The position numbers were made by a program, and so were the translations under genes. Under the pieces are notes generated by a model. That model ran no database searches. It saw only the letters and a list, made by a program, of their open reading frames with translations, and was not told the DNA's origin. Positions 6,340-55,560 of a DNA stretch of 64,000 nucleotides are shown piece after piece; position 1 is the first letter of the stretch, and every line of letters starts with the position of its first letter. This DNA is from Eledone cirrhosa (Eukaryota). The stretch covers positions 256,866,001 through 256,930,000 of the forward strand of contig OZ024740.1 of assembly GCA_964016885.1 (NCBI GenBank). Reading direction: 5' to 3'.

Positions 6340-8627
6340 AGGCCCCGATCTGAAAGTTCTCTTGAAGAGAGTGAACGTCGTCGATCTTTCCCTCCACTAG
6401 CCCTCTATAGAACGTCGAGGTGGATGTTCCACCGATCCTAGTGCCCAGCTGGTAGAGGGCAGTGAGCGCTTGGAGACATTCCAGCTTCCAAGCGCTATTC
6501 GTCGGTCTTTTCCTGATCCAAAACTGCAGCTCCGTCAAGGAGACGAGCTGGGGAAAAGCGCGTCTGGCAAACGGCGACCACACCTGTTCACCCGTCAAGG
6601 AAGCACCAGAGATGTCGCAGCCTCAGCTCATGTTTGCGCATCATCAGCCATGGCATGCCTAGTCCTCCACGCAACAGGTGTTGACAGCAGATGGATCGTC
6701 TGACCATGGGAGCACGTCCTTTCCATAAAGAGCGGAAGAGAAAGGTGCTCCATTTTAGTCAGAGTTGGGCGGGGACAAGGTACGATGGTCAGGCGGTAGC
6801 AGATGACGGACCGAACCAGACACCAAGCACTTTAACCGATCCTCCCGTCCAGCGTCCCACGACGCTGTCGGACGCCATGGACTTGCCTCTCCTTGTGTTG
6901 AGTTGCAAGCCCACGTACTTTTCCTGGTTTTTATTTACTCCTGTCACCATTTCGTATTCCTTGAGAGCGGTGCCGAGCATTTGGACGTGTTTGGTGCTCG
7001 ACATCACAACGGTGACGTCGTCGGCGTAAGCTGAACGGATCTCCCACATCCCAGTTCGCGTGGGATCTCCCTCATCGTCTCCAATTTGTGAAGTAACGGC
7101 TCGAGGGCCTGTACGTACAAGAAGCACGAGAGGGGCAAACCCTGGTGGACCGAGCGCATGATGCTGAAAGGTTGCGACAGGTGACCATTCACCCTAAACA
7201 ATCGAGCATATGTCGCTGTGCATCGCAGCGATCCAGCCCCTAAAGTCGGGCGCGAAGCCGGCCGCCTCGAGGACCGCAGCCAGGTACCGATGGTCGACCC
7301 TATCAAATGCTTTAGATTTATCCAAGTTCATCAGGGCCCCTCCCATGACAGGTTCAGTAGCCATCCTCTCTATGATGTATCGCATGAGCTGGAGGTTGTC
7401 GTGGATTGATCTGTCCGGAATGGCGCATGTCTGCGACTCACCCACCAGATCATGGACGACAAGCACCAATCTCTTTGCTAACACCTTGGCCAAAATCTTA
7501 AACTCTGCGTTTAGCAGAGTTATGGGCCTGAAGTTGTCTATAATGTCCCCCTTGTTCGGGTCTTTTCTCAGCAGCGCCACCGCTCCCTGGCTCACAAAAC
7601 TGGGAATGCTCCCGTTTTGCTGCCAGTTGCAGTAGATGTCTGCCAAGAAGTTGCCGAACAAATCTGGCTTATACGCATAAAGCTCGTAGGGCAGACCATC
7701 CAAACCTGGCGATTTACTCCTCGTGCAGTCAGATCGCTTCTCGTATTTCATTGGCTGTTATCGGCCTTTCGCAGCACTGCGCAGACAGCATTCCGTCGAA
7801 ATATGCACCGAAGTCCATACCCTGACCCGGCCCGCCGTTCCCGAACAATCAGAGCAAAGTGCTGTTGAAAAGCCGCACACATCTGCTCGGGTTCGAGCAA
7901 CATGCGCCCGTTTTGATCAGGCAAGGACCGAATTGTGGACTTGTTGCCACGTCGCGCCACCACTACCCGGGTCCATTGGACAACCTTCAATAGCCAGATC
8001 TGTTTTCTTACAGAATACCCTATCTAAATACGATCTGGATGACCCGATGCGGTTTGCCCATGCCCACATTGGCATATTCAGATAATCCAGTATATATATG
8101 TCAGGCAGTTCAAAACATCTGAGCAGCGTGTTGAGGCTTTTACACCCTCCTGCCCTGTCTACTAGCCCCACATAATCCCAGCGTCCATCTAAGATACCGT
8201 TCCAGTCGCCCATTAACACTAAAGAGCGGGACGTTCCCAGAAAGGTCTCTAGACGTCTGAAGAAATCTGGCCGTCCTACACCATTTGGGGCGTAGACGGC
8301 TACTAGCCTGAAAGCATTGCCTTCGCTGCCGGTCACGTCCAGCACCACCGACTTACCTTCTGGGTCCAGGAATATGTCCCGTATGGCGAGATTCAAGTCT
8401 CTCCGAACTAGCACTGCCACCTCTCTCCCCGAACCTGGACGGCTGGGAGATGCGTATACATCGTAGCCGCCGAAGATCAGTGCGAAGGCTTGTGCTTCGG
8501 AGATTCTGGTCTCGCTGATGGCCACCACATCTATATTTAGTGACATGAGGTCGTTGAGCAGGTAACCCTAATTCCAAGATGACCCCAGGCCACGTACATT
8601 TATACAGCCTATTCTAAGTACGGCCAT
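6340..8627 (-). pseudogene. Tx1 copy A ORF2 (APE + RT), frameshifted
   Basis: Motifs DVVAISET, MGDWN, SYLDRVF, KSPGLDG, NFRPITLLN, KAFDRV, QG.PLS and AYADD are spread over several frames. There is a deletion near 7985 between EN and RT. Confidence 0.9.
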
Positions 8628-8664
8628 GTTGGATGAGAAACGAGGCAAGTGAGAAAGGTTCACT

Positions 8665-10598
8665 TACCTTGATCGTGTGGTGAAGGGACAGTAGAACCGT
8701 CCCTTTGGCTGGTCATGGGTGTTTCCAAGAGGATGTCGGTGTATACCCTCTTGGTAACCGACCCTCTGAAGACTCCAACTGCGTTGGGGAATTGTTGTTA
8801 TAAAAGTTTGTACTGTTCTATTTTGATTTCAATGATGCTTATGTTTGTCGGGATAATTCTTGGTGTTGGTGGGGTGTAGTAGTTTTTTTCTGTGATGTCT
8901 GTGTGCTGCTTTATATGTTGTATGAGTTCTTTATTTGCCATGTTTATGGCTGTGTACTTTTGGGAGTAGGGGTGATTTTGTTGCTGTTTTCTTGTTGTTG
9001 CTGTTGGGTGTGTGTGTTTTGTTGTGTTTGCGATGTTGGTGTTTTTGGTGATGCTGGCGGTGGTGTGGTTGTTGTTGGTGGTGATGCTTGTGCTGGTGTT
9101 GCTGCAAGTATCCTTGCAGCCTTTACCCCTCTTTGTCTGCCTTCACTTTTGGAGAGTGAAGCTAAGGGGTTTTCCTCTTTTGTTTTTGTGGCAGATCGTT
9201 TGCCACTTCCATCCCGCCTCACACTCCATGTCAGACTCCGCAGCGTCTGGGAAGGGGCATGAGCTCCACTGCTGTTGGTGTTGGTAGTGGAGCCCGCTCC
9301 GGTGATTTTACCGCCGGCGTAGCTACTGCGATTGTTGGTGTTGCATCCACTGCTGCCGCTGCTTTAGTTGTCCGTGGCCCTGGTATGGGTGCCACTGACG
9401 TTGCCCTCCTATTCACTATGGAAGGGTCTTCAGCCTCTGTTGCCTGCCCAGCTCTTGGTAGCAACGGATCAGGCGTCGGAAGGAGGGGTGCCCTCTTCTT
9501 GGCTGTCTTCTGCGGGCAGAAGGCCCTGAGGTGACCCTTCTGTCTACAGAGATAGCACTTTGGGCGCCTTCCTTCCACACTTATAGGGAGTTGGTGTCCT
9601 TCTTCGAGGTCTATGATCTCTGGGATGGCCTCGATGCCCTCCTGGTCAGTCTGTATTAGCATTTGCATGCCTGTTCCTGACCAGGTCTCTCCTCTCATTC
9701 TCTGTATTTGCAGTATGGTGGTCTTCTCCTCGATTCCAACAAGTACAGACGCGGCCAGCCAAGGTATGGGCACGTCAGGTGGGACCTGGGTCACTTTGAC
9801 CCTCACAATTTTCTTCCCGCAGTAGGAGGGCACCAAGACTATCTCCTCACTCTTTAGGGTTTCCAAAGAGTGAGACTTTGCCTCTTAGGGGGTGCCGAAA
9901 AGTACGTCTACTGTGCGCCCAGACGCACTCCAAAGCCTTTTGGATTTGAGCCTCCGTGGCTCTCTCCATCCGATGTGACATCTTGCTTACGGTGCAGTAG
10001 GTCACCGTCCGTAGCTGCTGGCTCTTGAAAAAATCCGGTGGAGGTTTCAGGGAAACTCTATTGGCGTTTCTTGTCACCATGGCCCTTGCGACTGCCATCT
10101 CCTCCTCTGTGACTAACACTGTTTCGATATTTCGGGCGACACCTGCAAAAGAAGTGGTCCCTTTTTCAGAGGTACCACTATTGCTGCCGCTACTGGTCTT
10201 GCTAGTGGTGCTGAGATCGCTGTTACAGGTATCGGTGTCATTGTTGATGTTTTCGTTGGTACTGTTGTTGGTGTTGCTGTTGTTACTGTTATTGTGGCTG
10301 TTGTTATTATTGTTGTTTTTGTTGATACTGTTCCTACTATTATTGTTGTTGTGGCTGTTGTTATTGTCATTGTTATTGTCGTTCTCGACCTTACCGCTGT
10401 TATTTTGTTTTTGCTGTTGTTATTGATGGTGTTGTTTGTGTTAGAAATATTTGGTAATTTTAAATCTGTAACAATATCATTAAAAATGATATTCTGCCGC
10501 TTTTCCTTCGTAATATTTTCTTTTATATTTACCTTTGCTAGAACGCTGTCTTGTTGATATGCTGACAAAGTCTCCCTCTCTCTATGTTGTCTGACCAC
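8665..10598 (-). pseudogene. Tx1 copy A ORF1 (zinc-knuckle RNA-binding protein), frameshifted
   Basis: CYLCRQKGHLRAFC (CX2CX4HX4C) in ORF 9231-9866, with Thr/Gln-rich low-complexity flanks. Confidence 0.8.
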
Positions 10599-10859
10599 GC
10601 TCTCTCTCTCTCTTTCTTGTGTTATCCATATTGAAAGACATTTTTTTCTCCAAATAATATTATTACTTAATACGACATCCCATAAGGGTATTATTTACGA
10701 GTGAACCCATGTATTAGGTGGGTCACTTCTTCTAAACTTTTATCAAGTTAAAATTTGAATAAAAGGTTTAGAACGGTTGAAAACGAGGTAATACTGTTGA
10801 AAAAAAATTTGAGCCGATAAGAAGCATGGCTTCACTACAATAATAATAATGATAATAAT

Positions 10860-10975
10860 AATTGTTTCTACTTTTGGCACAAGGCCAGCAATTACTCAGT
10901 GCATTACTGGTACTTTATTTTATCGTCCCATAAGGATGAAAGGCAAAGTTAACCTTGGCGTGATTTGAACTCAGA
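10860..10975 (-). mobile_element. 5'-truncated tRNA-derived SINE (Nin/Deu-type core) between (AAT)n tracts
   Basis: Core TTTGCCTTTCATCC..GATAAAATAAAGTACCAG and tail GTAGAAACAATTATT on the minus strand; matches the fuller copies at 30552 and 52889. Confidence 0.85.
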
Positions 10976-10984
10976 ATAATAATG

Positions 10985-11050
<66 letters not shown>

Positions 11051-11302
11051 CTTTCTTTATTAACCACAAGGGTTTACACAAAGTAAACGTTAAGGACAGT
11101 ACAGGACAGTACTGGACGGTACAAAAGGGCATTTCTGCGTCTAAAAAAAACCCCAAAACAGAGGATGTAATAATAGAACAATGAAAAAATTCCCCAATAG
11201 GGGGGAGACTTCCGAAGGACATTCGTGGAGAAAGCCCATTAAAAAGCCACAGTGACCCTGACCACCAGGACAGGTGTCCTCTCCCAGTTTTCAACCTTTA
11301 AT

Positions 11303-14300
11303 TTACAGACACATACTCAGAGTAGGCCCAATCACTCGGGCCATTCTTGCCTCTCTCACCCATCTTTCAACAACATGCTGGGAAGAGAGCACTTCCCTTT
11401 CTACCCTCATTTTCCTTTTCAAATGAAATTTGAAAAAGTTAATCAGGGCATCACCGAAGAGGTAAGTGCTCGTCTTCAGCCCTTTCAAACGTGTCCACCA
11501 TACTATCTCTTTCGCCATGGCCACCAGACAGATAAAAACTGCCTGCCCTTCCCGGCTAAAGAAAGAGGGCGGGGCAATCCTCACGATGGACTCAGATGAT
11601 AGCCGGATCCGTCCTACACGCGACAGCAGGTGTTCGACATAAACCCACAAGTCAGCAATGCTCGGACACTGGACGAGTGCGTGCAAGACGGTTTCGTCGC
11701 CTTGCGCGCATCTCGGACATGCCCGGCTGACGGCACCTCCATGCCTGTAGAGTTTATCCCGAACTGGCAAAGCTCCTCGGTAGCACTGCCAGGACAGGCA
11801 TTTCTGGAAGTTGTCCATATTCCCCGGCCCGAAAGTTCTTCCGAAGAGATTGGCTAGTTGATTTTCGTCGACGCCTAGAATTTCGCCAAGTACGTCGTCG
11901 CTCTTCCCCTCCACTAATCCTCTATAGAACGCCAAGGTGGAGTTTCCACCGATCACATTGCCCGATTGGTCGAGGGCTGGGAGCGCCTGAAGACATTCCA
12001 GTCTCCAAGCGCTCCCTCTCGGTCTTCGCTTGACCCAGGACTGCAGCTCCGTCGAGGAGACGAGCTGGAGAAAGACGCGTCTAGCAAAGGGCGACCACAC
12101 CTGAGGACCGCCGAGGTGAGGTGGAGATGTCGTAGCCTGAGCGCGTGTCTTCGCATCATCAGCCACGGCATGCTCAGCCCTCCACGTAGCGGGTGTTGAC
12201 AACAGATGGACCGCCTGACCATCGGAGTGCGTCCTTTCCACAAAAAGCGAAAGAGCAAACGCTCCAGCGCAGTCAGGCAGGGCTTAGGACAAGGTACGAC
12301 GGTCAGGCGGTGGTAGATGACGGACGCGATGTACGCGTTAGCCACCTCCGCTCGACCTTTTAGGGATAGCTTCCTCTCCGCCCATTTCTGGGTGACAGAA
12401 GCCAACCTGCTCGGCACCTCGTGCCAGTTTTTGTCCGTCTGGAGGTCCGGACCAAACCAGACCCCTAGCAATTTAACCGACGACGCTGTTGGACGGCATG
12501 GACCTGATGTCCATGTGCCGAGCTTCAAGCCCACTGACTTTTCCTGGTTGATCATTGCTCCTGTCACCGCTTCGTATTCACTTAGTGTAGTGCCGATTGC
12601 CTCGATGTGTTTGGCGTTCGACACCACTACGGTGACATCATCCGCATACGCTGACACGGATCTTCCGCATCCTAGTTCGCGCGGGATTCCCCTTAACGTC
12701 TCCAGTTTGTGCAGTAATGGCTCGAGAGTCAATACGTAGAAGAGGGACGAGAGGGGACATCCTTGGCGGACGAGCGCATGATACGGTTCCGAAAGGTGAC
12801 CGTTCGCTCTCACCACAGAGCAGATGTCGCTGTGCATGGCAGAGATCCAGCCTCTGAAGTCGGGCCCAAGGCCAGCCGCCCTCAGGACTGCCGCTTGGTA
12901 ACGATGGTCGACCCTATCGAAAGCTTTCGAGTGATCTAAATTGATCAAGGACCCACGCGTGCCAGGTTCCTTAGCTACCCTCTCCACGATTTATCACATG
13001 AGGTGGAGGTTGTCGTGGATGGATCTGTCGGGAATGGCGCATGTCTGCGCCTCTCCCACCAGACCATCAACGACAAGCGCCAACCTCTTTGCTAGCACCT
13101 TGACCAAAATCTTGAACTCTGTGTTTAGCAGAGTTATGGGCCTGAAATTATCTATGTTATCCCCCTTGCTTGGATCCTTTCTCAGCAGCGCCACAGCTCC
13201 TCGGCTCACAGAGCTGGGAATTCTCCCGTTCTGTTGCCAGTTGCAGTAGACGTCCGCCAAGTGGCTTCCGAACAAGTCTGGCATCTGTACGTAAATTTCA
13301 TAGGGCAGACCATCCAAACCAAGCGATTTACCCCTTGTGCAGACAGTCATTGCCTCCCGTACTTCAACGGCTGTTATCGGCTTTTCGCAACACTCCGCCT
13401 CAGTGGCCGAGAGCCGCGGCAGTCCGTCGAGGTAGACACTAAAGTCCATCCCTCGATCCGTCCCGCCGCTGCCCCCGAACAGCTGAGCGAAGTGTCGCTG
13501 AAAAGCTTCACACATTTGCCCGGGATTGTGTAGCATGCGCCCGTCGTGGTCCACCAAAGACCGGATCGTGGCTTTGTTGCCACGACGCGCCTCTGCCACT
13601 CGGGCCCATTGAACGGCTTTCGTCCCCTCGTGTCTGAGAGCACGCACCCTAGCTCTGACACCGCAACCTTCGTGCTTTGCATTGAAGAATTGGTTAAAGG
13701 CCAATTTCGCCGCAAGTACGTCGGTCGCGATACCTTTGCTAAGCGCCTCTATAATTTTCTAACTAGTTCTCCCTCGGCTCTATTTTTCTCTATTGCTAAA
13801 GCCTTACTAAACTTAATGGATTCTATTCTAATCGCTCTTTTCAGAGCAAACCACCTCTTGTTGTTGACGATGGCCCCCGTCAACGCCCGCTTAACTAGTT
13901 CGCTAATCCGATCTATGTAGGCCTTGCGCGCTGTTAAGGACGCGTTTAGCTCCCAGTAGCCGGGTCCTCGTCTATGAAGCCTCTCTAAGTCAAGCAGACA
14001 GATCACGAATTTGTGGTCCGTGTAGCTGACTATCTTGAATTGTGGACAGCCTATGCTAGACCTATCTATTTCCCTACAAAATACTCTATCTAGATATGAT
14101 CTGGATGACCCTATGCGATTTTTCCAAGTCCACATTGGCACATTCGGGAAATCCAATCGGTACCTGTGAGACAGTTCAAAACGCCTGAGCAGGTTGGTGA
14201 GACTCTTGCACCCTCCACCCCTATCCGCTAATCCCACACAGTCCCAGCGTGCATCTAAGAGCCCGTTCCAGTCATCCACTAACACTAAAGGGCGGGACGT

Positions 14301-14693
14301 TCCAAGAAAGGTCTCCAGACGCCGGTAGAAATCAGGCCGCCATGCTCCTGTTTGGGCATAGACAACCACTAGTCTGAAAGCTTGCCCGTCTCCGCTGGTC
14401 ACGTCCAGCACCACCAACTTACCTTCTGCGTCCAGGAAGATGGCCCGTATGGCGAGATCCAAACCTCTCCGAAAAAGCACAGCAACTCCTCCCCCCGATC
14501 CAGGACGGCTGGGAGATGCGTACACATCGTAGCCGCCAAAGATCGGTGCGAAGGCCCGTGCTTCGGAGATTCTGGTCTCGCTGATGGCCACTACATCTAT
14601 GTTTAGTGACCTGAGGTCGTTGAGCAGGTAACCCTGCTTCCATGACGACCCCAAGCCACGCGCATTTCTGCTGCCTATTCTGAGTGAGGTCAT
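11303..14693 (-). pseudogene. Tx1 copy B ORF2 (APE-RT-C-terminal zinc finger)
   Basis: ORF pieces 13749-14726 (APE), 12994-13704, 11953-12987 (RQGCPLS, AYADD) and 11303-12241 (CPRC..ETVLHALVQC). Confidence 0.92.
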
Positions 14694-14726
14694 GTTGAAA
14701 TGGAGTGGAGAAGATGGGAAAGACAC

Positions 14727-16730
14727 TTACCTTACTTCTCGTAGAGGAAGGACGGTTTCTCCATCCTTTTCACTGCTTGTGACCTCCTCAGGAAGGATGT
14801 CCTTATAAATCCTTCTGGAGAGTGCTTGTCGGAAGTCTCCGATGTCTTTGGGGAATTTTTGTTTTAGTGTCATGTACGTTTTCTGTGTGATGGGAGTGAT
14901 TTGTATGTGTGTAGGTGTTGTGAACGTTTGGGTTGTTGTGTAGTCTTTTTCTGTGATGCTGGTGTTGTGTTGGATGTAATGTAATAATTGGTTGTTGTTC
15001 AAATGTAATTGTTTCTACATTTGGCACAAGACCAGCAAATACCCAGTACATTACTGGTACTTTATTTTATCGACCCCGTAAGGATGAAAGGCAAAGTTAA
15101 CCTTGTTGTTCAAATTTAATGCTGTGTAGTGTGTATCGTTTTGGTTGTTTTGTTTTGTTTGCGTTTGTTGTACGTTTGTTTCTGTTTCGCTTTTTCGTGA
15201 CTTTTGTGGTGTTGGTAATGGTGGTGTTGGGGTTAATGATAGTGATGGTGTTGGTGTTTGTGGTGATGGGGTTGGTGATGCTGGTGGTGATGGTGGCATA
15301 TCTGTCCTAACTTTTTTGTTTGATAGTTTATTTGTTTCCCTCTGTATTTTGTTTTTGGAGGGTGAATGAAGGGGATTTTTTTCTTTTTTGGCTTCTTTTT
15401 CTTTTTTTCGTTTTTGCTGATACCGTTTCCCACTCCTCGTCGTTACAATTTGTTTCCAGTTGCGATAGGTCGGGGAGTGGAAATCCTCCACAGGCGTTGG
15501 TTTTGGTTGTGGCGTTGTGAATGGTGTACGCGCTGGTGCTAGTTCTGGCCCGTTTGGGGGGAGGGGTTGCTACTGTTACTGGGTTTGTTGCTGTTCCAGT
15601 TGCTTCTGTTGTTGTTGCTACAGTTGTTGCTGCCATTTCTGCTGCTGGTGGTGTTGATGGTGGAGTCACTGGGTTGGGTAAGAGAGGTGGCCTCAACCTT
15701 TTAGCCTGAGGGCAGAAAGCCCTTAGGTGGGTTCCTTCACCACAAACGACGATTACGGTGAGGCGGCTGCCGTCAGTGAGGTCTATTACCTCTGGGATCT
15801 CCTTAATGCTTTTCTGGTCAGCTTGGATCAGGAGCTCCATCCCAGATCCGGACCTGTTCTCCTGCTTTTCTTTTGCTATTTCGATTATCTTGGTGTTGGC
15901 CTCGATGATGGCGAGGACGGCTGCCATTAGGCAGGGAATTTCGATGGCCGGTGGAACGTGGGTCTCCTTGATCTTCACGAGTCACTGGCCACAATAGTTT
16001 GGGACGAATGTGAAGTCGTCACTTCTTAATGGGGCCTCCTGTGCCTCCTGTAGTGTTCCAAAGAACACGTCCACGGTACCATATTTCTGCCCACGTCTGA
16101 TGTGGGTTTTTTTTTGCCCACACATGTCCCAAAGCTTTTTGGATTTGGGACTCCGATGCCCGTACCACTCGGCGCGATTTTATGTTAATCGTACGATAAG
16201 ACACGATCCATAGGCGCCGGTGCTCCATTTTATTAGGCGAGGGGGGCAGGGGGGGCTGACCCTGTACCCATCTTTCTTTACCATTCTCTTGGCTACATCT
16301 AATTCCTCCTGAGTTACCTGGAGTGCTTCGCACTTTTTTGCTGCTTTGGCAAAAACACGGTGGTTTTGTTATTCTCATTGTTGTTGTTGCTGTTGTTGTT
16401 ATCGTTATTTTTGTTATTGTTATTTTTAGTTTGAGTTGTGGTGGTGGTGGCGTCAGTGGTGTTCGGTGTGGAAGAGTCCATTCTGAGTGAATCCATTTCG
16501 ATGTCACGAGATAATTTATTTTTTTCTTTTGTTTCTGTTGTCGCTGTGGTGATGGTGGCTACAACACCTGCAGTCATTGGTAATGGCGGGAAATGAATGT
16601 CTGCATGAGACAAATTTAAATTATTGCTACTGCTTATAATTTTAGTGTTGGCAAACCTAGTAATATTTACAATGTTGGTTTCGGTGTGAGGTGTTAGTTT
16701 GTGAGGAAGGTGGGGCTGTGAGTTGCCCAT
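14727..16730 (-). pseudogene. Tx1 copy B ORF1, interrupted by a SINE and frameshifts
   Basis: Homologous to copy A ORF1 (IPEVIDL, HLRAFCPQ, QIQKAL). Confidence 0.8.
15010..15102 (-). mobile_element. Truncated Nin-type SINE inserted in Tx1 ORF1 with 18-bp TSD
   Basis: TSD ttgttgttcaaatgtaat (14992-15009) and ttgttgttcaaatttaat (15103-15120). Confidence 0.9.
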
Positions 16731-16965
16731 GATTTTTCAAAGAAATCTTTTTGTTTGATAATTATAAAAGTTTACATTTTGGGCTCAAGGCCCGAATCTT
16801 TTGAGTGTCCTTTTCCGAAAGCAAATTTTGTGACCTTATAAACAGTTAATAACAACATTTTTCCATAAATGGCAATTTTAAACAAACGAAAACAACAAAC
16901 CTTTGCGGAGCTCACGATGATACGATTTCCTACGTAGGTCGCCAATAATAATAATAATAATAATA

Positions 16966-17075
16966 ATTGTTTCTACTTTTGGCACAAGGCCAGCAATTAC
17001 CCAGTGCATTACTGGTACTTTATTTCATCGACCCCATGAGGATGAAAGGCAAAGTTAACCTTGGCGGGATTTGAA
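16966..17075 (-). mobile_element. 5'-truncated Nin-type SINE between (AAT)n tracts
   Basis: Same sequence and context as 10860-10975. Confidence 0.85.
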
Positions 17076-17092
17076 TAATAATAATAATAATA

Positions 17093-17305
17093 ATGCTTTA
17101 TTTATTAACCACAAGGGTTTACATAAAGTAGACATTAAGTACAGTACAGGAAAATACAGGACGGTACAAATGGGCATTTCTGCGTGTAAAAAAAAAAACA
17201 GAGGATGTAACAAAAAAGAACAATGAAAAATTCCCCAATAGCGGGGAGACTTCCATAGGCCATCGTGCAGAAAGCCCATTAAAAAAAGCCACGGTTTCTT
17301 TAGTG
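17093..17305 (-). mobile_element. Tx1 (B subfamily) 3'UTR fragment with (ATT)n tail
   Basis: Aligns with 11049-11255 (ttattaaccacaagggtttaca...aaagcccattaaaaa.gccac). Confidence 0.85.
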
Positions 17306-17319
17306 GCCACAAGGGGTAA

Positions 17320-19455
17320 CATGAAGAAAAACATTACAGACGACACAGAACGGTACGGGACGATACAAAGTGTGTTTTGGCCGTGTAAAAACGGTTATAA
17401 CAAGAATATAGAAATATCAAAAAAAATTCAAACAACAAAAATTTCCCAATAGGGGGGAAACTTCTAAGTGTCACTCGTGGCGAAAACCACACAAAAGACC
17501 ACCACCAACCTGACCATTCTCAGTTTTCCACTCTTCAGTTTACAGGCGCATACTCTGAGCGGGCCCGTTCACTCGGACCAGACTCGCCACTTTCACCCAC
17601 CTTTCAACAAACTTACAGAACACAGCACTTGCCTCTTCACCCTGATTTTCCGCTTCAAGTGAAACTTGAAAAAGTTAAATAGGGATTGGCCGGAGAGTAC
17701 AGTGTCCGTCTTCAACACTTTCAACCTTGTCCACCACACATCCTCTTTCACCATGGCCACCAGGCAGATGAAAACTGCCCTTCCGCCTCTTTAAAGTAGG
17801 ATGGCAGAGCTATCTGCACAATGGATTCAGTCGATAACCGGATCCGTCCTACACGCGACAGCAACTGTTCGACAAGTCAGCAATCCTCGGGTACTGAACG
17901 AGTGCAAGACGGTTTCGTCGCCCTGGGCGCATCTCGGACAGGCTCGGCTGACAGCACCTCCATGCCTGTAGAGCTTATCCTGAACCGGCAACGCTCCTCG
18001 ATAGCACTCCCAGGCGCGGAATTTCTGGTTGTTGTCCATAGTCCATGGGCTGAAATATCACTCGAAGAGAGCGAACAGCTGATCGTCTTCGACGCCCATG
18101 GTCTCCCTTAGAACGTCATTGCCTTTCACCTCCACTAGCCCAATATAGAACGCCGAGGTGGATATTCCACTGCTACTAGTATTCAGCTGGTAGAGGGCGG
18201 TGAGCGCTTGGAGACATTCCAGCTTCCAAGCGCTATCCCTTGGTCTTTTCCTGATCCAGTACTGCAGCTCCATCAAGGAGACGACCTGAGTAAAAGCGCG
18301 TCTGGCAAACGGGGATCACACCTGTTCACCGTCAAGGAAGCACCAGAAATGTCGCAGGCCCAGCGCATGTTTACGCATCATCAGCCATGGCATGCCTAGT
18401 CCACCACGCAACAGGTGTTGACAGCAGTAGGATCGTCTGACGATGGGAGCACGTCCTTTCCATAAAGAGCGAAAGAGAAGGCGCTCCATTTTGGTGAGTG
18501 TTGGGCGGGGGCAAGTTACGACGGTCAGGCGGTAGCAGATGACGGACGCGATGTACGCATTCGCCACCTCCCCCCGACATTTCAGAGACAGCCTCCTCTC
18601 GGCACATTTCTGTGTGAGAGAGGCCACCCTGCTCATCTCCTCGCTCCAATTTTTCTCCATCTGGTGGTCAGGACCGAACCAGCGCCCCACGACGGTGTCG
18701 GACGGAATGGACTTGCCTCTCCAGGTGCCGAGTTGCAAGCCCACCGACTTTTCCTGGCTTATCTTTGCTTGTCACCGCTTCGTATTCCTTGAGAGGCGTG
18801 CCAAGCATCTGGACGAGTTTGGTGCTCGACGCCACCACGGCGACGTCGTCGGCGCGAGCCGACAAGGATTTCCCTCATCGCAGTTTGCGAGGGTCCACAC
18901 TCATCGTCTCCAATTTGTGCAGATACGGTCCAATGCATACTAAAGGGATGAGAGGGGACAAGCCTGGCGGACCGAGCGCATGATGGTGAACGGCTGCGAC
19001 AGGTGACCATTCACCCTCACAATCGAGCAGATGTCACTGTGCATCGCAGCGATCCAGCTCCTAAAAGCGGACCCGAAGCCGACCGCCTCGAGTAACGCCG
19101 CCAGGTACCGATGGTCGACCCTATGCTTTAGATTGATCCAAGTTCATCAAGGCCCCACTCGGCCAGGTTCCTTAACCATCATCTCTATGGTGTATCGTAT
19201 GAGATGGAGGTTGTTGTGGATGGATCTGTCCGGAATAGCACATATCCGCGCCTCTCCCACCAGATCACGGACGACGCCAATCTCCTTGCTAACACCTTGG
19301 CCAAAATCTTGAACTCTACGTTTGGCAGAGTCATGGGCCTGAAGTTCTCTATAACGTCCCCCTTGTTCGAGTCTTTTCTCAGCTGCGCCACTTCCCCCGG
19401 CTCACAAAACTGGGAATGCTCCAGTTGCAGTAGACCTCTGCCAAGAGGTCGCTGA
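17320..19455 (-). mobile_element. Tx1 copy C (A-like subfamily), 5'-truncated, RT to 3'UTR
   Basis: ENFRPMTL, WLMMRKHAL and CPRCAQGDETVLH motifs; has its own 3'UTR at 17320-17540. Confidence 0.88.
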
Positions 19456-19519
19456 GAAGTGACCCACCCAATACAGGTGTTTCACACGTAAATAATATAG
19501 CACCCCTTTACGGGTGTCA

Positions 19520-19605
19520 TGTTCACTCGGACCAGATTCATCGACTTTCACCCACCATTCAACAAACTTAGTACAAGACAGCACTTGCCTCTCCACCCTG
19601 ATTTT
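19520..19605 (-). mobile_element. Short Tx1 ORF2 C-terminal fragment
   Basis: KIRVERQVLS..KFVEWWVKV matches 17567-17650. Confidence 0.7.
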
Positions 19606-19622
19606 AATATTAATAATAATAA

Positions 19623-22600
19623 TGTTTTCTTTATTAACCACGAGAGTTCACTTAAAAAATATAACATTAAGGACAGCACAGGACGGTGCAGGACGGTACA
19701 AATGGGCATTTCTACGTGTAAAGAAAAAACAAACAAAGAAAATGACAAAAAGAAACAAAGGAAAATTCCCCAATAGAGGGGAGACTTCCGAGGGGCACGC
19801 CTGGAGAGAGCCCATTAAAAAAGCCACGCTGATCCTGTCCTCCAGGGCAAGTGCCCTCTCCCAGTTTTACACCTTCAATTTACAGGCGTATACTCAGAGC
19901 AGGCACATTCACTCTCTCACCTATCTTTCAACAAAATGCTGGAAAGAGATCACTTCCTTCTCCACCCTGATTTTGTTTCGCAAATGAAATTTGAAAAGGT
20001 TAATCAGGGCATTACCGAAGAGGTAAGTGCTCGTCTTCAGCCCTTTCAAACGCGTCCGCCACACGATCTCTTTCGCCACGACCACCAGGCAGATAAACAC
20101 TGCCTGCTCTGCCTGGCTAAAGGACGGCGGGGCAATCCTCGCGAAGGCCTCAGCTGATAGCTGGATCCGTCCTACACGTGACAGCAGGTGTTCGACATAA
20201 ACCCACGATGCTCGGATTCTGGACGACTGCGTGCAGGACGTTTCGTCCCTCTGCGTGCATCTTGGACAGGCCCGGTTGACGGCACTTCCATGCCTGTAGA
20301 GTTTATCCCGAACTGGCAACGTTCCCGGTAGCATTGCCAAGCCAGAGATCTCTGAAAGTTGTCCATGGGCCCCGGCAAGAAAGATCTCCCGAAGAGATTG
20401 GCTAGTTTATTTTAGTCAACGCCCAGAGTTTCCCCAAGGACGTCGTCGCTCTTTCCCTAGACTAACCCTCTATAGAACGCGAAGGTGGAGTTTCCCTCGA
20501 TCACATTGCCCGATTGGTCGAGGGCTGTAAGCGCCTGAAAACATTCCCGTCTCCAAGCGCCTCCTCTCAGTCTTCGCTTGACCCAGGACTGGAGATACCT
20601 CAAGGAGTCGAGCTGGGAAAATACGAGTCTAGCAAAGGGTGACCCCACCGGATCACCGTCGAGGCCGAGGAGGAGATGCCGTAGCATGAGCGCATGTTTG
20701 CGCATCATCAGCCACGGCACACCCAGCCCTCCACGTAGCGGGTGTTGATAGAAAATGGACCTTCTGACCATCGGAGCACGTCCCTTCCACAAAAAGCAAA
20801 AGAGCAAACGCTCCAACGCAGTCAGGCGAGGCTTAGGACAAGGCCCGACGATCAGGCGGTAGTAGATGGCGGACGCGATGTACGCGTTCGCCACCTCCAC
20901 TCGACCTTTCAGGGATAGCTTCCCCTCGTCCATTTCTGGATAAGAGAGGCCACCCTGCTCGTCACCTCGTCCCAGTTTTTGTCCGTCTGGAGGTCCGGAC
21001 CGGAACAGACCCCTAGCAATTTAACCTGTCCGTCCGTCCAGCGCCCGACGTCGCTGTTGAACTGCATGGTCCTGCCTCTCCAGGTACCGAGCTGCAGGCT
21101 CACCGACTTTTCTTGTTTAATCATTGCTCCTGGCCCCGCCTCGTATTCTTTTAGTGTAGTGCTGATCGCCTCGATGTGTTTGGCATTCGACACCACAACG
21201 GTGACGTTGTCGGCATATGCTGACATGGTCCTCCCGTTTCCTAGTTCGCGCGGGACACTCCTCAACGTCCCCAGTTTGTGCAGTAATTAGCTCAAGAGCC
21301 AATACGTACAACAGGGATGAGAGGGGACATTCTTGGTAGACCGAGCGAATGATGTTGAATGGTTCCGAAAGGTGACCGTTCACTCTCACCACAGAGCAGA
21401 CGTCGTTGTGTATGGCAGCGCGAACCAGCCTCTGAAAACGGCCCAAAGCCGGCCGCCGTCAGGACCGCCGCCAGATAACGATGGTCCACCTATTGAAAAC
21501 TTTCGACTGATCTAAATTGATCAAGGACCCACCCGTGCCAGGTTCGTTAGCTACTCTCTCCAAGATGTATCGCATGAGGTGGAGGTTGTCGTGGATGGAT
21601 CTGTCTGGAATAGCACATGTCTCCGCCTCTCCTACCAGGCCGCCGATGACAAGCGCCAACCTCTTGGTTAACACCTTGGCCAAAATCTTGAACTCTGCGT
21701 TTAGCAGAGTTATGGGCCTGAAATTATCTGTATTGTCCTTCTTATTCGGGTCCTTTCTCAGCAGCGCTACTTCTCCTCGGCTCACAAAGCTGTGTATCTC
21801 GGAAGTCTCCAATGTCATTGGGGAATTTTCCTTTTAGAGTTGTGTATGTTTTTTGTGAGATGCGTATTGTTTGTATGCGTGTGGGTGGTGTGAATTTGGG
21901 GGATGTTGTTAGTTTTTCTTTGTGTTGCTGATGTTTTATTAGAAGTAGTGCAGTAGCTGTTTATTGTTCGTGTTTAAAACGGAGTAGTGCCTTTCAGTTT
22001 AGTAGTTTTGTTGTGTTCGTGTTTGTTATGGTTGCACGATTTAGTTTGTTTCTGTTTGGCTTGTTGTTGGTGGTGTTGGTGTTTGTGTAGTTGGGGGATG
22101 GTGATGCTGGTGTGGCTGGTGGTGTTGACGTAGATGTCTTGATTTTTAATTTTTTTCTTTATTTGTTTCGCCCTCTTTGAGGGTTTAGGAAGAGAGTTAT
22201 TTTTTTCTCATGTTTTTTTAACGGTTTTCCACTCCCCCTCCTCGTCCCAATCCGTCTCTAGTTGTGTGAGGTCGGGGAGTGGGATATCCTCCACAGGCGT
22301 TGGTGTGGCTTGTGGCGTAGTGAATCACGGTGGCGCTAGTGGTACTTCTGACGTGGCGGGTGGTGGTGGTGGTGCTCTTGCTACAGTTGCTGCTGTTATT
22401 GTTATTTGAGCCAGTGGCGTATGCAATGACGCCCTAACACCACCGACACCACCACAGCAACAACTGAAACAAAAAACAACAACATGAACAACAACAACAA
22501 CAACAACAGCAGCGCAGGACCAAACGTCTATTTTGCCAGTGTTGTGGTAGAGCCAAATTTCGTGCTTCGCTGTTGCTGATATTTAAATTTTGATCACAGG

Positions 22601-30738: not shown

Positions 30739-31241
30739 GGTTTAGCAAATAATGAAAAAGTTTCAAAATAAATTTTAAAAAATTGACTTTACCTACTATA
30801 GTTACCTTTACCGATCGGTTTCGAATCCCAAAAATAAAACGGAGACCATACGGCCTTCGTTGCAAAGAGAGATTCTCGTCAGAAGGTTCTTTTCATTGAA
30901 AGAATATAAAATTCCTGAATTTAAATCACAAACTAGCGCTATCAAAACTGTTCCTGGGATGAGAGTGGATGATGTAGAAACAGGTTTATCAAGGGCCGAA
31001 GCAAAGATAGAGGCAAAAGGAGGTAGGTCGAACTAGCCACAGCTATTGCTAGCAGCAGTCAGAACGACCAAATTTGTTCTCAACATTAGTGGAGGTAGTA
31101 GTAATAGGATATACGTTCCTTCACGCACAAGGCGCCAGGGTACGCATGTATTGTCCAACTAAATGCCAGTGTGGGCGCCTTGTGCGTGAAGGAACGTATA
31201 TCCTATATATTTATATATATATATATATATACGTATACATA

Positions 31242-31292
<51 letters not shown>

Positions 31293-31299
<7 letters not shown>

Positions 31300-31644
31300 T
31301 ACGTATACGTACATACATATATGTATACAGACGTACAGTAGTATGTATATATATATATACATACATGGACACATATATATGTACGTATGGATTTACCGAA
31401 CATTTATTATAATGCTCGGTGTGTTTGTAAAGAAACATCCCGAATTAAGCCGTACAGTTTTTAGCAACCATCGTTGCTCTTTTGTTCAACACTATAAAGG
31501 AACGATGTACTAGTTTTAAGCTTATTAGCTATTGTCAGCACCGTATACCTTCCTGTCAGATGATTGAACGTCTGAAAGTATATACTTTCCTCATGCATAT
31601 TAACGGCTGAGCAGCCTAATTTGCATATCGAGTGAGTTAATCGG
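31293..31644 (-). mobile_element. Solo copy of the ~434-nt hammerhead repeat family (ribozyme core mutated)
   Basis: Aligns with 39335-39679; the core reads CTGACAA..TAAAAC at 31502-31544. Confidence 0.8.
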
Positions 31645-31979
31645 TTCTTAACCCCACTATCAGGCTAAATAATTTCTTTAATTTCTTTAGTCAAAATACG
31701 GCGATAGCTTACATTTCTAATAATTTCAAACCCACTCACTGTTTCGAAAATATTCTTACTTGACATTACAGTCGCTACGTTTATAGCTTCTAAATTGAAT
31801 GGAAACAGACGGGTCATGTGTTGGTGTAAATGGTAGCACAGTGGGGTCCGGATAACCAAAGATGTGGGTTCGACTCCCATGTACGTCAATACCCATCGTT
31901 TTCCATTTCTCCGAGGGTTCTTAACCCCACTATCAGGCTAAATAATTTCTTTAATTTCTTTAGTCAAAATATGGCGATA
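31643..31979 (+). mobile_element. 273-bp partially tandem unit with an internal tRNA-like segment
   Basis: 64-bp direct repeats at 31643-31706 and 31916-31979; TGGTGTAAATGG A box and GGTTCGACTCC B box at about 31822-31877. Confidence 0.6.
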
Positions 31980-38433: not shown

Positions 38434-38899
38434 ACATATATATACACATATATATACATACACATACATACACATACACATACATATACATATATACACA
38501 TACACACACACATACACACATATACATACATACATAGATATACACACATACACATATATACGTATATATATATATATATATGTGTATATATACGTATATA
38601 TATATATATATATATATACGTATATATACACATAAACACATATACAAATACACAAAGGGGAAACATTTAAGGAAACAATCAAGATATGAAAAACCATCAA
38701 ATAATATAAATTTAAATTAAGTAACATAAAATACAAGTAAATAAAATTAAAGTATAAGTTATAAGTTTGAAAGGGAACAAAACAAAGGTAGGGTTGGGAT
38801 GGGAGGGGGGCACGGGGGAGTGTTTTTAATGTTTAATGTCGATTCCGTTGTCTTATGGGATCATCGTTCAGGGGGAAGAACTGGTCTATATGACATGTA

Positions 38900-39310
38900 A
38901 GTTGCATAGTTTTTGTGCATGCAATTCGGGCAGTGTTCTGAGAGTCTATTGATGTATAAAGGGAGGTTTCTAAATCGAGAGTTACATCTAAGAAGTTGGC
39001 TTTAGTTAAACTCGAATTTATAGTTATTCTGAGGCTTAGGTTATTGAAGAAAGCGTTAAGTTTTTTCCGAAACCCATCGGTAGTCGTGGGGTTAATGTTA
39101 TGCAGGGCAAAGAGGCCACCATCTCGGTATAATCCGCCTGTAAGGCATGTGAAGAGGGTTTTCTTCCGGTTAAGGATAAACAGGCCCACCAGATCACTAA
39201 TCTCAGCCGAGTCACTAGTACCCATCCTGACATCGAAGAGAGTCTCCGATTTTTTGTTCATCGAGTAGGACCCGTTATGGTACAAAAAGGTCTAACGTGC
39301 ATGGAGGATC
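38900..39310 (-). pseudogene. Penelope-like reverse transcriptase fragment (Naiad-like motifs)
   Basis: FDVRMGTSDSAEISDLVGLFIL, GLYRDGG (decayed YRDD) and NFLDVTLDL motifs. Confidence 0.75.
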
Positions 39311-39320
39311 ACATCCTGCT

Positions 39321-40141
39321 CGGCTGTTACTTAAATATAAGTATGTATCCGTACATACATATATGTATACAGACGTACAGTAGTATGTATATATATATAC
39401 ACATACATGCACGCATATATATATGTACGTATGGATTCACCGAACATTTATTATAATGCTCGGTGTGTTTGTAAAGAAACATCCCGAATTAAGCTGTACA
39501 GTGTCTAGCAACCATCGTTGCTTATTTGTTCAACACTGACACAGGAACGCTGTACTAGTTTCAAGCTTATTAGCTATCGTCAGCAACGTATACCTTCCTG
39601 CCACATGATTGAACGTCTGAAAGTGTATACTTTCCTTATGCATATTAACGGCTGAGCAGCCTAATTTGCATATCGAGTGCATACATATATGTATGTACGG
39701 ATACATACTTATATTTAAGTAACAGCCGTACTAAGAGTGAGAAATGAAATTTCGTTTCATTTTTTCCGTGTATCGCTTTCGGTGCGCCCGGCCGATTAAC
39801 TCATTCGATATGCAAATTAGGCTGCTCAGCCGTTAATATACATAAGGAAAGTATATACTTTCAGACGTTCAATCATCTGGCAGGAAGGTATACGTTGGTG
39901 ACGATAGCTAATCAGCTTGAAACTAGTACAGCGTTCCTTTGTCAGTGTTGAACAAATCAGAAACGATGGTTGCTAGACACTGTACGGTTTAATTCGGGAT
40001 GTTTGTTTACAAACACACCGAACATTATAATAAATGTTCGGTGAATCCATACGTACATATACATATGTGTGCATGTATGTATATATATATATATACATAC
40101 TACTGAAAGTATGTATACATATATGTATGTACGGATACATA

Positions 40142-40148
<7 letters not shown>
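39321..40148. mobile_element. Fold-back of a ~434-nt hammerhead-containing unit
   Basis: Arms 39335-39679 and 39802-40148. On the plus strand, gtacggatacatacttatat repeats at 39695 and 40129. Confidence 0.85.
39547..39589 (-). ncRNA. Minimal type I hammerhead ribozyme
   Basis: ACGUUG-CUGACGA-uAGCUaauaAGCUu-GAA-ACUAGU-A^CAGCGU. The mirror copy at 39892-39934 has a C3>G change. Confidence 0.75.
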
Positions 40149-40186
<38 letters not shown>

Positions 40187-40539: not shown

Positions 40540-40559
40540 CATATATATAGATATATATA

Positions 40560-42420
40560 CATTCACAGCGCCATTTATATTAGACGCAGTCAAACTTATT
40601 CTGGAAAACAACATTTTCTTCTTCAAAGGAAAGAATTACATCCACATTAGAAGCACAGCGTTGGGAACGAAGTTTGCTCCCGTTTACGCGAACTCTGTAA
40701 TGGGATACTTAGAACAACAACTCTACCAAGAAATAAAGGAAAAATATAGCACTGACTTTAGAAAGAACATTGAAAAGTCTTGGAAGAGATACCTTGACGA
40801 CTGTTTCATCATCTGGACAGAATATCTAGATATTCTGGATGAGTTCAATATCCTCCTGAATAACCTACATCCATCTCTCCAATTCACATAAGAGATGAGT
40901 AGTACCGAATTACCATTCCTAGATATAATGATAATCAAAACCGACACCACCATTACCACGGATATATATTATAAACACGCAGACACCCATCAATATCTGA
41001 ATTTTAATCGTGCCATCTACCTCATACAAAACGCAACATCCCATACTGCCTAGCCCGAAGAATTTTTACTATTGTAGAAGATACGAATACCAGGCACAAA
41101 CGCCTAACAGAACTGAGAGAATTTTTGCTTAAACAAAAATACCATCTCTACTTATAGAAAATGGCATATAGCGGGCTAAAAAAATACCTATACAACAACT
41201 TAGGACAACCCAAGGAAGGAGAAACCAAGAACTGGTCATACCATTTATAATGACACACAACCCATGTAACCAGACTATCTTCAACACTGCCAAAGGAAAC
41301 CTACCGATCATTGCTCAAAGTAATGAATTAAAAGGCTTAATCACAGACCGATCTTTGACTCTTAGTAAAAGACAGCCGAAAAATTTGAAGCAATTACTAA
41401 CAAAGGCAAAGTTTAACCTTAACAACAAAGACCAATCATTCAATGTATCCAAATGCAGTGATAGTCGATGTGGCACATGTCAATCCATACACACGGTCAA
41501 TATATGAACACAAAAACTGGAAAAATATTCCCAAATGCAAATGTGAACTGCAAAAGCAAAATCTAATTTACTGCATTAAATGCCCGAATTGTGAAGAACT
41601 ATATGTCGGTCAAACTGGAAATGCACTATCGGAACGTGCACGGGTGCACCGACAGCAAATTAGAGACCCAAATGTCCGTCAGATACCCCTGAGTAACCAT
41701 CTAGCAACATGTGGTCAGAAAATATTCATAATATTTCCATTCTACAAATTACACAGCCCAAGTGAAATCAAGAGAAAAATTAAAGAAAAGAATTTTATTG
41801 ATGAATTCTAACCCAAGCTAAATGAACAATAATAATGCCTAGAGGTATTACTCCTACTATGACTACGCCTACGAACATGTTGACTACCACCATAACAACA
41901 ACAACAGTAATAATAATAATAAAAGTGATGTTGATGGTGATTATTACTGAAGACTTTTTATAAAAACCCTAGAAAATACTATTTTTATCATTTCTAAAAA
42001 TAGCAAAACAATTGATGCTTTGGATAGGGTCAAATAGAAGTCGTTAGACATGCTCAACCAACCGAGACGCCTAAACCAATCAGCTTTAGTAATCCAGTGA
42101 AACTACACACGGATTGGTCGAAATACAGTTTGCAAACTTAGCATTCTGTAGCCACTTTTCACTGTATATAAGGCACAAACTTTACCCATCTCATTAAAGT
42201 TGAAAATTGCAAACTTGACAGTCACCACATAATATTAACCTGAAGATTGCGAAAGCATGAAAGTACTTGTTCAATTAACACTTAACATTTAATATTCTAA
42301 CATACTATTTCATTCTAATACCATTATACATTTTAAAGGATTGTAAATAAAACGAGTAAATCAGACAAAGTTGGAATTCCTTTTATCAATACAATCCTCT
42401 ATACACAATCATACACACCC
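40560..42420 (+). mobile_element. Penelope-like element (Neptune-type RT + GIY-YIG), 5'-truncated and inactivated
   Basis: [39 protein letters not shown] and NLIYCIKC..LYVGQTG..ERARVHR motifs; flanked by (TA)n-rich tracts. Confidence 0.9.
42237..42271 (+). ncRNA. Hammerhead ribozyme in the PLE 3' pseudo-LTR
   Basis: AAC-CUGAAGA-uUGCgaaaGCAu-GAA-AGUACU-U^GUU. Confidence 0.7.
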
Positions 42421-43697: not shown

Positions 43698-44410
43698 TTG
43701 CTCTACGGTTCTTATATATTTGATATATATTTATCCTTATCGAGCCCCCTTTGGATTTTAGTCTTCAAATTTATTATTATTACTATATATATATATATGT
43801 TTTATTTATATATTTTTTTTTTTTTAATGCAACACGTGGTTCGAGTCATTCTCAGATTTGCATTTGCTTTGTCAACGCAGATAGTTATTTTCTTCTCCTT
43901 TGGTGACCATCCAGGATATTTGACTACTCTGATTTACTGATTAATTGGTGAAATATATTTCTTACTTAAAGAAATGTATACAAAGGAGATTAATCATTTT
44001 AAAAGGTATCTATATTTGAAGTTCTAGTTAAACCTTAATTAGTTACCTACCTAGCTATGTGTGCTTGCATTCTTTAACAATTATTCCCTGTGATTGTTCC
44101 ATGTATTTATTTTATATAAATATATGTGAATCTATTTCTAGTTGAAATGTAATGCTCCGATCTATTCATTGGAATCTTTGAGCTTATTCTACAGTGGATA
44201 TGGCGCATGTCTCTCAGATATGACAACCCTTAATTTAATTTTGGATATATATATATTGTTATACTTTGGGAGGGTCATGTTGCCAATAAGAAACACACGC
44301 ACCAGTTGTTTCACTTCAATTTAATTTATTATATATTTATAAATTTACAAATTTATAAATTTCTGGTTGGTTGGTTGGTTCCACAACCAGATAGTTGTTT
44401 ATATATATAT

Positions 44411-44455
44411 AGTCATAGTTCTTTCGTCACACACTCTGTGACCTCTTCAGTGACT
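44411..44455 (-). ncRNA. Type I hammerhead ribozyme
   Basis: AGUCA-CUGAAGA-gGUCACAgagugUGUGAC-GAA-AGaaCU-A^UGACU. Confidence 0.8.
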
Positions 44456-45419
44456 GGGGATTTCTTTCTTCGTTTCTGTGCCTTTCCTTTCTTCTATCCT
44501 ACGCCATTTTGTTTGTGTGTGGGTTGCGTGCTCAGTTTGCGCATGCGCCACATCCGGGTGTCTGTGTGTGTTTGTGTTCATTTTTCTATTTTTCTATTTA
44601 TATTTTTCTATTTGTTTGTTTATTTATTTATTTATTGTTGGTTGGTTGTTTGTTCTATGTGTGTGTGTGTTTTCATTTTGTCTTGTGTGTGTTTTCATTT
44701 TGTGTGTGTTTTCAATTGTAAGTTGTTTGTTTTATGTGTGTGTGTGTTTTCATTTTGTCCTTAATTGTAAGTTGTGATGTTGCTGTTCCACTCATATTTT
44801 CTATTTAATTTTGGTTTTAATTCTTTTATGCTTACTGCCTCTGTAATTTGCCTAAACATTGCGTCTTTCTTGTGTGTGGATTCTATTTTTATTTCTATGC
44901 TCTCTAATTTACCCCTGTGTTCTATCTTAGCATGTTGGTAGAGCACAGATGATTCTTTATTATCTTGGAGGTCTCGCCAGTGTTCATTTATTCGTTCCCC
45001 TATACTACGAGCTGTCTCACCTATGTACACTATATTTTTGTTTCTACATTGTCCTTCAGTACATCTTATGCTATATACTACATTTCTAGTTTTACAGTTA
45101 ATATGGGGGCTTATTTTACAGGTTATACATTTCTTATCTATACATGAGGGTCTTTGGAACGGGTATGTCTTGCTAATAAGTGTTTTTACGGAGGTACCAG
45201 GTCTTTCTACTATCTTAATATTGAGATTATGTTTCTTTAGGGCCCTTCTAAATTTGTAGGCTAGTTCGCCTCTAGGGGTTGTATTGATGAACATTACACT
45301 CTGGTATTTATTGCTATCATACCATGAGTTTATTCTATTGGCCTTGTTCTTAGTTCTTTCTATTCTATTCCAAAATTTGCTCCTATACAAAGGGCAGGTC
45401 CCATTTATGTCATTATTTA

Positions 45420-45421
<2 letters not shown>
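44411..45421 (-). mobile_element. Penelope-like element 3' portion (GIY-YIG endonuclease, 3'UTR, terminal HHR)
   Basis: [38 protein letters not shown], stop at 44761; (TA)n on both sides. Confidence 0.9.
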
Positions 45422-45498
<77 letters not shown>

Positions 45499-45565
45499 TA
45501 TATGTATATACATATATATATACATATATACATATACATATATATATATAAACATATATATATAT

Positions 45566-45687
<122 letters not shown>

Positions 45688-45917
45688 GTATATAATATAT
45701 ATATGTATATATATATATATATATATAAATAAACGAGAATCGTATTTCGGCTTAGGAATTAACGAAAACAACTTCCGAGATGTGTGGCAAGCGCTCAATA
45801 ATTCAGATGAATCACAGCTACAACATATGTTAAAGGCCAAACACACTGAGACGATAGTAAAACAAACATCCGCACAGCCAAAGAAACGACCAAGTAATTC
45901 GGGTCAAACAATAAAAA

Positions 45918-55477: not shown

Positions 55478-55560
55478 AATAACCTATGATTTCTAAATAA
55501 CCTGATGATTTCTAAAGAATGAAACAGTTCTAGTCCTGTAGAATCTCATCTATATTAAAA

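Follow-up and report, generated by a model that had tools for sequence, protein, structure and literature searches.

The locus described here raises the question of how a non-coding repeat of about 430 nt, equipped with a predicted hammerhead ribozyme, came to be deposited as two copies placed head to head, and what RNA and what enzyme could have produced this arrangement. It lies in a stretch of 64,000 nt from the genome of Eledone cirrhosa, hereafter the window, to which all coordinates without a locus label refer (Table 1). The explanation that we find rather likely is that the two arms are an aged head-to-head insertion into a (TA)n tract, made by a borrowed PLE RT/endonuclease and primed from both sides on one, probably circular, RNA.

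Table 1. Coordinates of the repeat copies, their hammerheads and the adjoining PLE fragment in the window
Feature	Position	Strand	Remarks
Right arm	39681..40148	+	468 nt: 34-nt partial unit and one 434-nt unit (39715-40148)
Left (inverted) arm	39321..39679	-	359 nt, 5′-truncated
Type I hammerhead, left arm	39538..39603	-	Intact; C3 at 39583, predicted cut after 39553 (GUA)
Type I hammerhead, right arm	39878..39943	+	Core 39898-39928, C3G
59-nt "tail" segment between 3′-end sites A and B	39715..39773	+	Unit-internal here
Third copy	31293..31644	-	5′-truncated single arm, site A end in (TA)n
GCCG microhomology (4 nt)	39321..39324	-	Left arm joined to middle of PLE RT fragment
Neighbouring, unrelated PLE RT fragment	38833..39320	-	Internal deletion of ~840 nt

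The right and left arms are 94% identical in pairwise comparison, inverted-repeat detection at the locus returned 292-nt arms with 95% identity, and the third copy is 91% identical to the right arm. All three copies are real and as an earlier sequence-only reading had described them, that is, a right arm slightly longer than one unit with one hammerhead, an inverted copy whose hammerhead is intact and has a palindromic ACUAGU helix III, and a third copy at 31293. The remark in that reading that the unit boundaries differ between copies holds for the 5′ ends only; at the 3′ side, a single site, A, is where both the right arm and the third copy terminate, and in the right arm it is followed by (TA)n at 40149-40183. 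The left arm runs past site A (39335) and stops 14 nt into the tail segment leading to a second site, B, and is therefore likely best read as a B-type arm lacking 45 nt and the terminal (TA)n, both presumably removed by deletion or upon insertion of the neighbour. GCCG is common to both sequences at that joint, and precedes the junction point in 7/11 other copies of the RT. The two arms of the window share an allele that 1% of other arms carry and the third copy lacks, so that a single template is the likely source of both arms, and an independent event that of the third copy.

The hammerhead of the right arm has a G at the C3 position (plus-strand 39898), and is for that reason predicted to be inactive; C3G destroys cleavage of the Poseidon hammerhead (PMC11167929). 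In the third copy the hammerhead is dead through G8A (31533) and G12A (31517). The lone intact hammerhead of the left arm lacks an intact partner on the same strand, so the locus is predicted to be unable to excise a monomer. What we observe in the window is thus an aged, decayed head-to-head insertion that is inactive, and a dead end.

In the intact hammerhead, helix I has two 6-bp segments separated by a 6-nt bulge, and the 4 bp of helix II lie above a U.U. Helix III is a single A-U pair capped by the palindrome CUAG, which means that ACUAGU can pair between two copies; the one-pair helix costs 5.4 kcal/mol in a monomer model, and the value for the ACUAGU duplex is -4.8. The 6-nt bulge and an AAUA/AACA loop, candidates for loop 1-loop 2 tertiary contacts, are both present in the family hammerhead, which by the definition given in PMC4209133 is classified from its sequence as canonical metazoan type I, not as the minimal PLE type. 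There was no Rfam match at gathering score, and the 81-nt hammerhead region alone is no more stable than its shuffles (z 0.02). When six monomers were folded as circles (30 shuffles each), z scores of -6.0 to -9.3 were obtained with the hammerhead arms free; the antisense strands fold well too (z -4.3 to -7.1), in part via simple repeats. Of the ribozyme blocks taken from loci that had been anchored elsewhere than in the ribozyme, 72/79 have an intact core, and pair 3 of helix I in this sample is U.G in 61, A-U or G.U in 15 and U.U in 2, with A.G and G.G at 0; the covariation may represent only one or two events. In an older subfamily (L144, L154, L169, and L208), C-G or C.A replaces the U.U below helix II, and the cut triplet is GUU.

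The sequence-only reading had suggested that genomic copies be counted. In the 3.0-Gb genome, the hammerhead motif pattern has 25,797 exact matches (13,287 + 12,510) against 0 + 0 for the reversed control, and its occurrence is therefore not due to chance. A 25-mer outside the ribozyme has 15,886 matches (reversed control 0), and the best 30 DNA matches are 95-97% identical and spread over several chromosomes. Unit lengths are 419-441 nt, with one subfamily at 456-538 nt, and subfamilies diverge at about 50-65 of ~430 sites. Arrays hold 1-8 units, except for one of about 25. The latter (L205 and L222, at about 72.26-72.27 Mb of G000:C3) has higher-order repeats, as in satellite-like local amplification. 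The GC content of the unit is 0.36-0.38, overlapping frames of at least 80 aa are only low-complexity or belong to neighbouring sequence, and no RT + GIY-YIG ORF was found inside the unit. Judged by these features, the unit represents an abundant, non-coding retrozyme-type family. Two exact ribozymes one unit apart are present in 14/56 hammerhead-anchored loci; two consecutive units with complete hammerheads, the mark of an "active" family in Li, Clavereau and Pollet (2026; 10.64898/2026.07.22.740005), are thus found in the family, and are absent at the window locus.

By the sequence features tested, the family belongs with the animal non-LTR retrozymes, cleavage and circularity being predicted properties here. 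A search of sequencing runs listed no RNA run carrying the sequence. Members of this class are expected to have tandem units of about 150-450 bp, each with one type I hammerhead. The earlier assignment to the retrozyme type is borne out by the tandem ~430-nt non-coding unit, the type I hammerhead, the covarying helix I and the 36% GC. As described by Cervera and de la Pena (2020; PMC7229834), metazoan retrozymes from coral, mussel and axolotl (Rtz331 and Rtz353) likewise have a short non-coding tandem unit with low GC and a type I hammerhead, and they share with the present family tens of thousands of copies and a highly paired circle fold that leaves the hammerhead free, a fold that is predicted in our case. 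HHR_Amex1 has a one-pair helix III with a palindromic tetraloop and HHR_Amex2 a U.U at the base of helix II, both as here. The unit, at 420-540 nt, is at or above the 170-400 nt given in that paper for expressed retrozyme circles, and the twin fixed 3′ ends, tails and head-to-head arms seen here are not described for retrozymes in the sections of PMC7229834 that we draw on. Circular RNA and cleavage have been demonstrated for those retrozymes, and are predicted for the present family. No paper on a cephalopod-type retrozyme was found in the open-access literature, where supplements may list such families. The retrozyme class itself is already known, and the value of the present family lies in its family-wide footprint, which is mechanistically informative.

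This footprint is contained in the ends of the copies. Arms were mapped at 60 loci covering the first 100 of the 25-mer matches, with one locus-edge arm dropped, and the 3′ ends of the resulting 106 arms lie at A in 40, at B in 47 and elsewhere in 19. The two sites, at one or the other of which 87/106 arms end, are 59 nt apart, with B further 3′, and (TA)n follows in 81 of the 87. The 5′ ends are instead dispersed along the unit; ten at reference position 1 are break-point artefacts, and the remaining 96 show no clear deviation from a uniform distribution (KS p 0.07). Head-to-head pairs number 33, and in the 23 where both ends are defined, one arm ends at A and the other at B without exception, the other 10 having an undefined or damaged end. 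Two of the 23 are copies of one insertion, which leaves 22 independent pairs (p about 5e-7 at even odds). In a second set of 92 other loci, a motif-based classifier gave A+B for 26/26 pairs, a few of which may be separate insertions as the classifier pairs ends within 2.6 kb. Retrozyme target-site duplications, where they occur, are longer than 4 bp; a scan for such duplications flagged 3/45 single arms, of which only L175 is convincing, (TA)n masking the rest; one 9-bp duplication was noted by eye at L081. In the same 45 single arms, (TA)n is present after the 3′ end in 37 but ahead of the 5′ end in only 12, an asymmetry that may reflect loss of target at the 5′ junction, cutting at the tract edge, or synthesis of the tract by the RT.

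Taken together, the fixed 3′ ends, the scattered 5′ ends and the A+B pairing are the tail and inversion footprint of a PLE. For PLEs, a tail often "only at one end" has been described along with inverted 5′ copies, tandem structure and (TA)n targets (PMC8557442), and for the Poseidon system it has been reported that two internal RT start sites delimit the tail and that the enzyme, predicted to act as a dimer, cuts and extends both strands (PMC11167929). All four features of PLE derivatives, i.e., tail, 5′ truncation, inverted 5′ copy and (TA)n target, are found in the family. The likeness extends to the EN+ PLEs Neptune, Hydra and Naiad (Craig et al. 2021, PMC8557442) and Poseidon PAc (Frangieh et al. 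2024, PMC11167929), which as the unit here have partial tandems, 5′ truncation and an inverted 5′ copy, a tail at one end only, (TA)n targets and two start sites. In contrast to these elements, our unit has no ORF, its tail is 59 nt rather than 30-40, and its hammerhead is canonical where theirs is minimal (PMC4209133). The copies had been read as circularly permuted, which the two fixed 3′ sites contradict; that reading had held that fixed ends without permutation would speak against it, and the copies show fixed 3′ ends together with variable 5′ ends. As the ends match the PLE footprint, the apparent permutation is accounted for by target-primed copying and 5′ truncation, and the end distribution is no demonstration of a circle. 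The A+B rule was not found stated in the open-access literature searched. Mobilisation of the retrozyme by a PLE is, in our assessment, very likely.

The neighbouring RT fragment of the window is assigned to the Hydra type from the DKT and CxCX5C motifs in its relatives. As a parent of the unit it was rejected, because its full-length relatives have a different 3′ end and lack the unit. Inspection of 69 hammerhead-anchored loci, 47 variant-hammerhead loci and an intact Neptune-type family did not reveal any autonomous PLE that has the unit or its tail, and the partner search, with a sample of about 180 of many thousand loci from which a rare master may escape, yielded simple-repeat similarity only. 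Two loci with a spacing of 3-4 kb proved to be a long array and a duplication. There was no pLTR homology to the sampled Hydra-type and Neptune-type families, a sample outside which most PLE families of the genome lie. Since no unit-sharing autonomous PLE was found, it is from footprints only that the PLE driver is inferred. Li et al. (2026) report hammerhead monomers, dimers and multimers in a PLE-rich genome and propose PLE mobilisation, as we do here, but they base the link on homology to pLTRs and on co-occurrence in vertebrates, whereas ours is an insertion footprint, no homologous pLTR having been found. Both the PLE-as-driver model (Li et al. 2026) and the circle-as-template model (PMC4209133, PMC7229834) are proposals, and a strict one-A-one-B rule combined with a single template for both arms turns them into concrete tests.

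In the intact Neptune-type family, 108/108 scored matches are 99-100% identical and stop-free, many with a 777-aa open frame. The clade name is one that we presume from the CX4CX2C linker and from RT motifs. Its copies end in (TA)n at two sites 39 nt apart, and inverted copies are A+B in 3/3; a Hydra-type family, inspected by eye, has two ends in (TA)n as well, and the driver could come from either clade. For reconstitution, the genome offers both very young retrozyme arrays and an intact Neptune-type PLE whose ends obey the same rule. One Neptune-type PLE (L272:788-5630), a 4.8-kb unit, is intact and apparently recently active. Its 777-aa RT/GIY-YIG frame is overlapped, at the slippery site U-UUU-UUA, by a 427-aa upstream ORF (ORF1), which a U3/A8-type hammerhead-like motif precedes by ~180 nt; PMC8557442 (Fig. 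1) mentions PLEs in which ORF1 is frameshifted.

With respect to the template, a linear monomer cut by the ribozyme was rejected as the usual form, as arms cross the cut site with neither pile-up nor scar. The 5′ end lies within 6 nt of the predicted cut site in 3/106 arms (about 3 expected), 78/106 arms cross it, and 98/100 crossings are free of indels. With the linear cut monomer excluded, the remaining candidates are a re-ligated circle and an uncut multimer. Within young arrays there are 0-6 internal substitutions, compared with 3-65 between arrays, and the old trimer L024 is star-like, with 56 private and 0 shared changes. Both arms have a rare allele in common in 13/26 pairs, including that of the window, against 42/630 cross-locus controls; the partner arm is nearer than the median other arm in 24/25 cases, and the single nearest in only 5/25. 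Gene conversion could also be a source of alleles shared between arms. That priming took place from both ends on one template is a part of the explanation that we regard as likely, with good confidence. Locus-specific variants that are uniform throughout an array need a monomer bottleneck, which is why a circle is favoured: passage through a single monomer length would be the sole route by which new variants come to fill a whole array. DNA-level amplification also acts, as follows from mosaic and higher-order arrays (L088 alternates between 14-16 and 0-4 differences, and L205 is likewise named). Marks of A-to-I editing were not seen in a small test with three older-subfamily loci left out (A>G in 3/17 shared and 13/197 private changes). 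Retrozyme circles and ligation by RtcB are treated in PMC7229834. A point against the model is that 8/9 Xenopus retrozyme dimers tested did not cleave. On balance, we judge a circular RNA template to be moderately probable.

The same two-ended PLE priming could instead have acted on a read-through transcript from a tandem array, linear and uncleaved, with no part for the hammerhead in copying. Uncleaved RNA is the dominant substrate of the Poseidon enzyme in vitro, where hammerhead cleavage is unnecessary (PMC11167929), so an uncut linear multimer would account just as well for the scar-free read-through of the cut site, with no pile-up of 5′ ends. Possible sources are present in the form of arrays with 7 to 25 units, and 98/106 arms are shorter than 2 units. 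Read-through can only shorten arrays, however, and should transmit their mosaics, whereas the young arrays are uniform across both arms; the hammerhead has also been kept, with a compensatory change, across subfamilies as divergent as those described above. We therefore regard a read-through template as unlikely, if worth keeping in mind.

A further alternative regards the unit as a pseudo-LTR belonging to an autonomous PLE, and the copies as its 5′-truncated or solo terminal repeats. Every structural footprint is PLE-like, Xenopus retrozymes match pLTRs, and 24/57 families there are homologous to TEs, nearly all of them PLEs (Li et al. 2026), so that an ancestral pLTR origin of the unit is plausible. 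As a description of the present copies, this reading is very improbable: units directly adjoin each other, and what lies upstream is another unit, a truncation point or an inverted arm; in the cases inspected, nearby pieces of PLE ORFs are inverted, are split by the insertion, or have (TA)n lying in between; the adjacent RT family has its own, different 3′ end; and the hammerhead is canonical, not of the minimal PLE type. A repeat spread at the DNA level (satellite, MITE or fold-back duplication), with inversion via recombination, is scarcely credible and largely refuted by end polarity, for even if DNA-level events are evident from higher-order arrays and from a 1.7-kb inverted duplication with a copy at its centre, this reading does not provide for fixed 3′ and scattered 5′ ends, the strict A+B rule, dispersal across many chromosomes, or the star-like divergence of old arrays such as L024.

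Returning to the PLE-mobilised retrozyme, the sequence of events could be as follows. Tandem loci would be transcribed, and two hammerheads, paired via the palindromic helix III, would cut out a monomer that is then ligated to a circle. A PLE protein, probably a dimer, would nick both strands of a (TA)n target, and each 3′-OH would prime cDNA synthesis, one at A and one at B. Each cDNA would run round the template until drop-off, and the two cDNA ends would be joined head to head. In its most specific form, in which twin-primed rolling-circle reverse transcription by a PLE dimer, on one ribozyme-made circle with two start sites, left the insertions as its DNA fossils, the proposal could in our estimate equally well prove right or wrong. 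If true, it would explain the PLE tail, the head-to-head inversion and copies of more than a unit in one step, and animal retrozyme circles would be real transposition intermediates.

A second hammerhead family of the same architecture, with a 310-nt unit, is very young (2,575 motif matches; L085:5600-7900, L114, and L282-L291). It has a palindromic ACGCGU helix III, a U.U under helix II, and arrays of up to about 28 units. Its two ends are 36 nt apart, and complete two-armed insertions are A+B in 7/7. At 6/14 loci, locus-specific variants are present in every unit of both arms, e.g., in 16/16 units.

Several other repeats were noted. A dead Hydra-type PLE is present as a 1.7-kb inverted duplication (99.2%; L225:7697-9396 and L226:756-2452) that is centred on a fold-back copy of the ~430-nt repeat. 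The window contains two decayed PLEs with RT/GIY-YIG remnants, at 40559-42300 (+) and 44400-45900 (-), with hammerhead-like cores at 42240 and 44450; more such cores are located at 55502 and 61994. Beside the (TA)n of the third copy is an imperfect inverted repeat of ~100 nt (31105-31206), similar to sequences in L215 and L003. The repeat at 31643-31979 has a 64-nt direct repeat at each end (273-nt period) and a middle part that by eye is tRNA-like, and inverted copies of it are found in L084 and L209. Finally, a multi-kb repeat occurs three to four times within 6261-21777, in diverged copies at a spacing of 2.3-6.2 kb.
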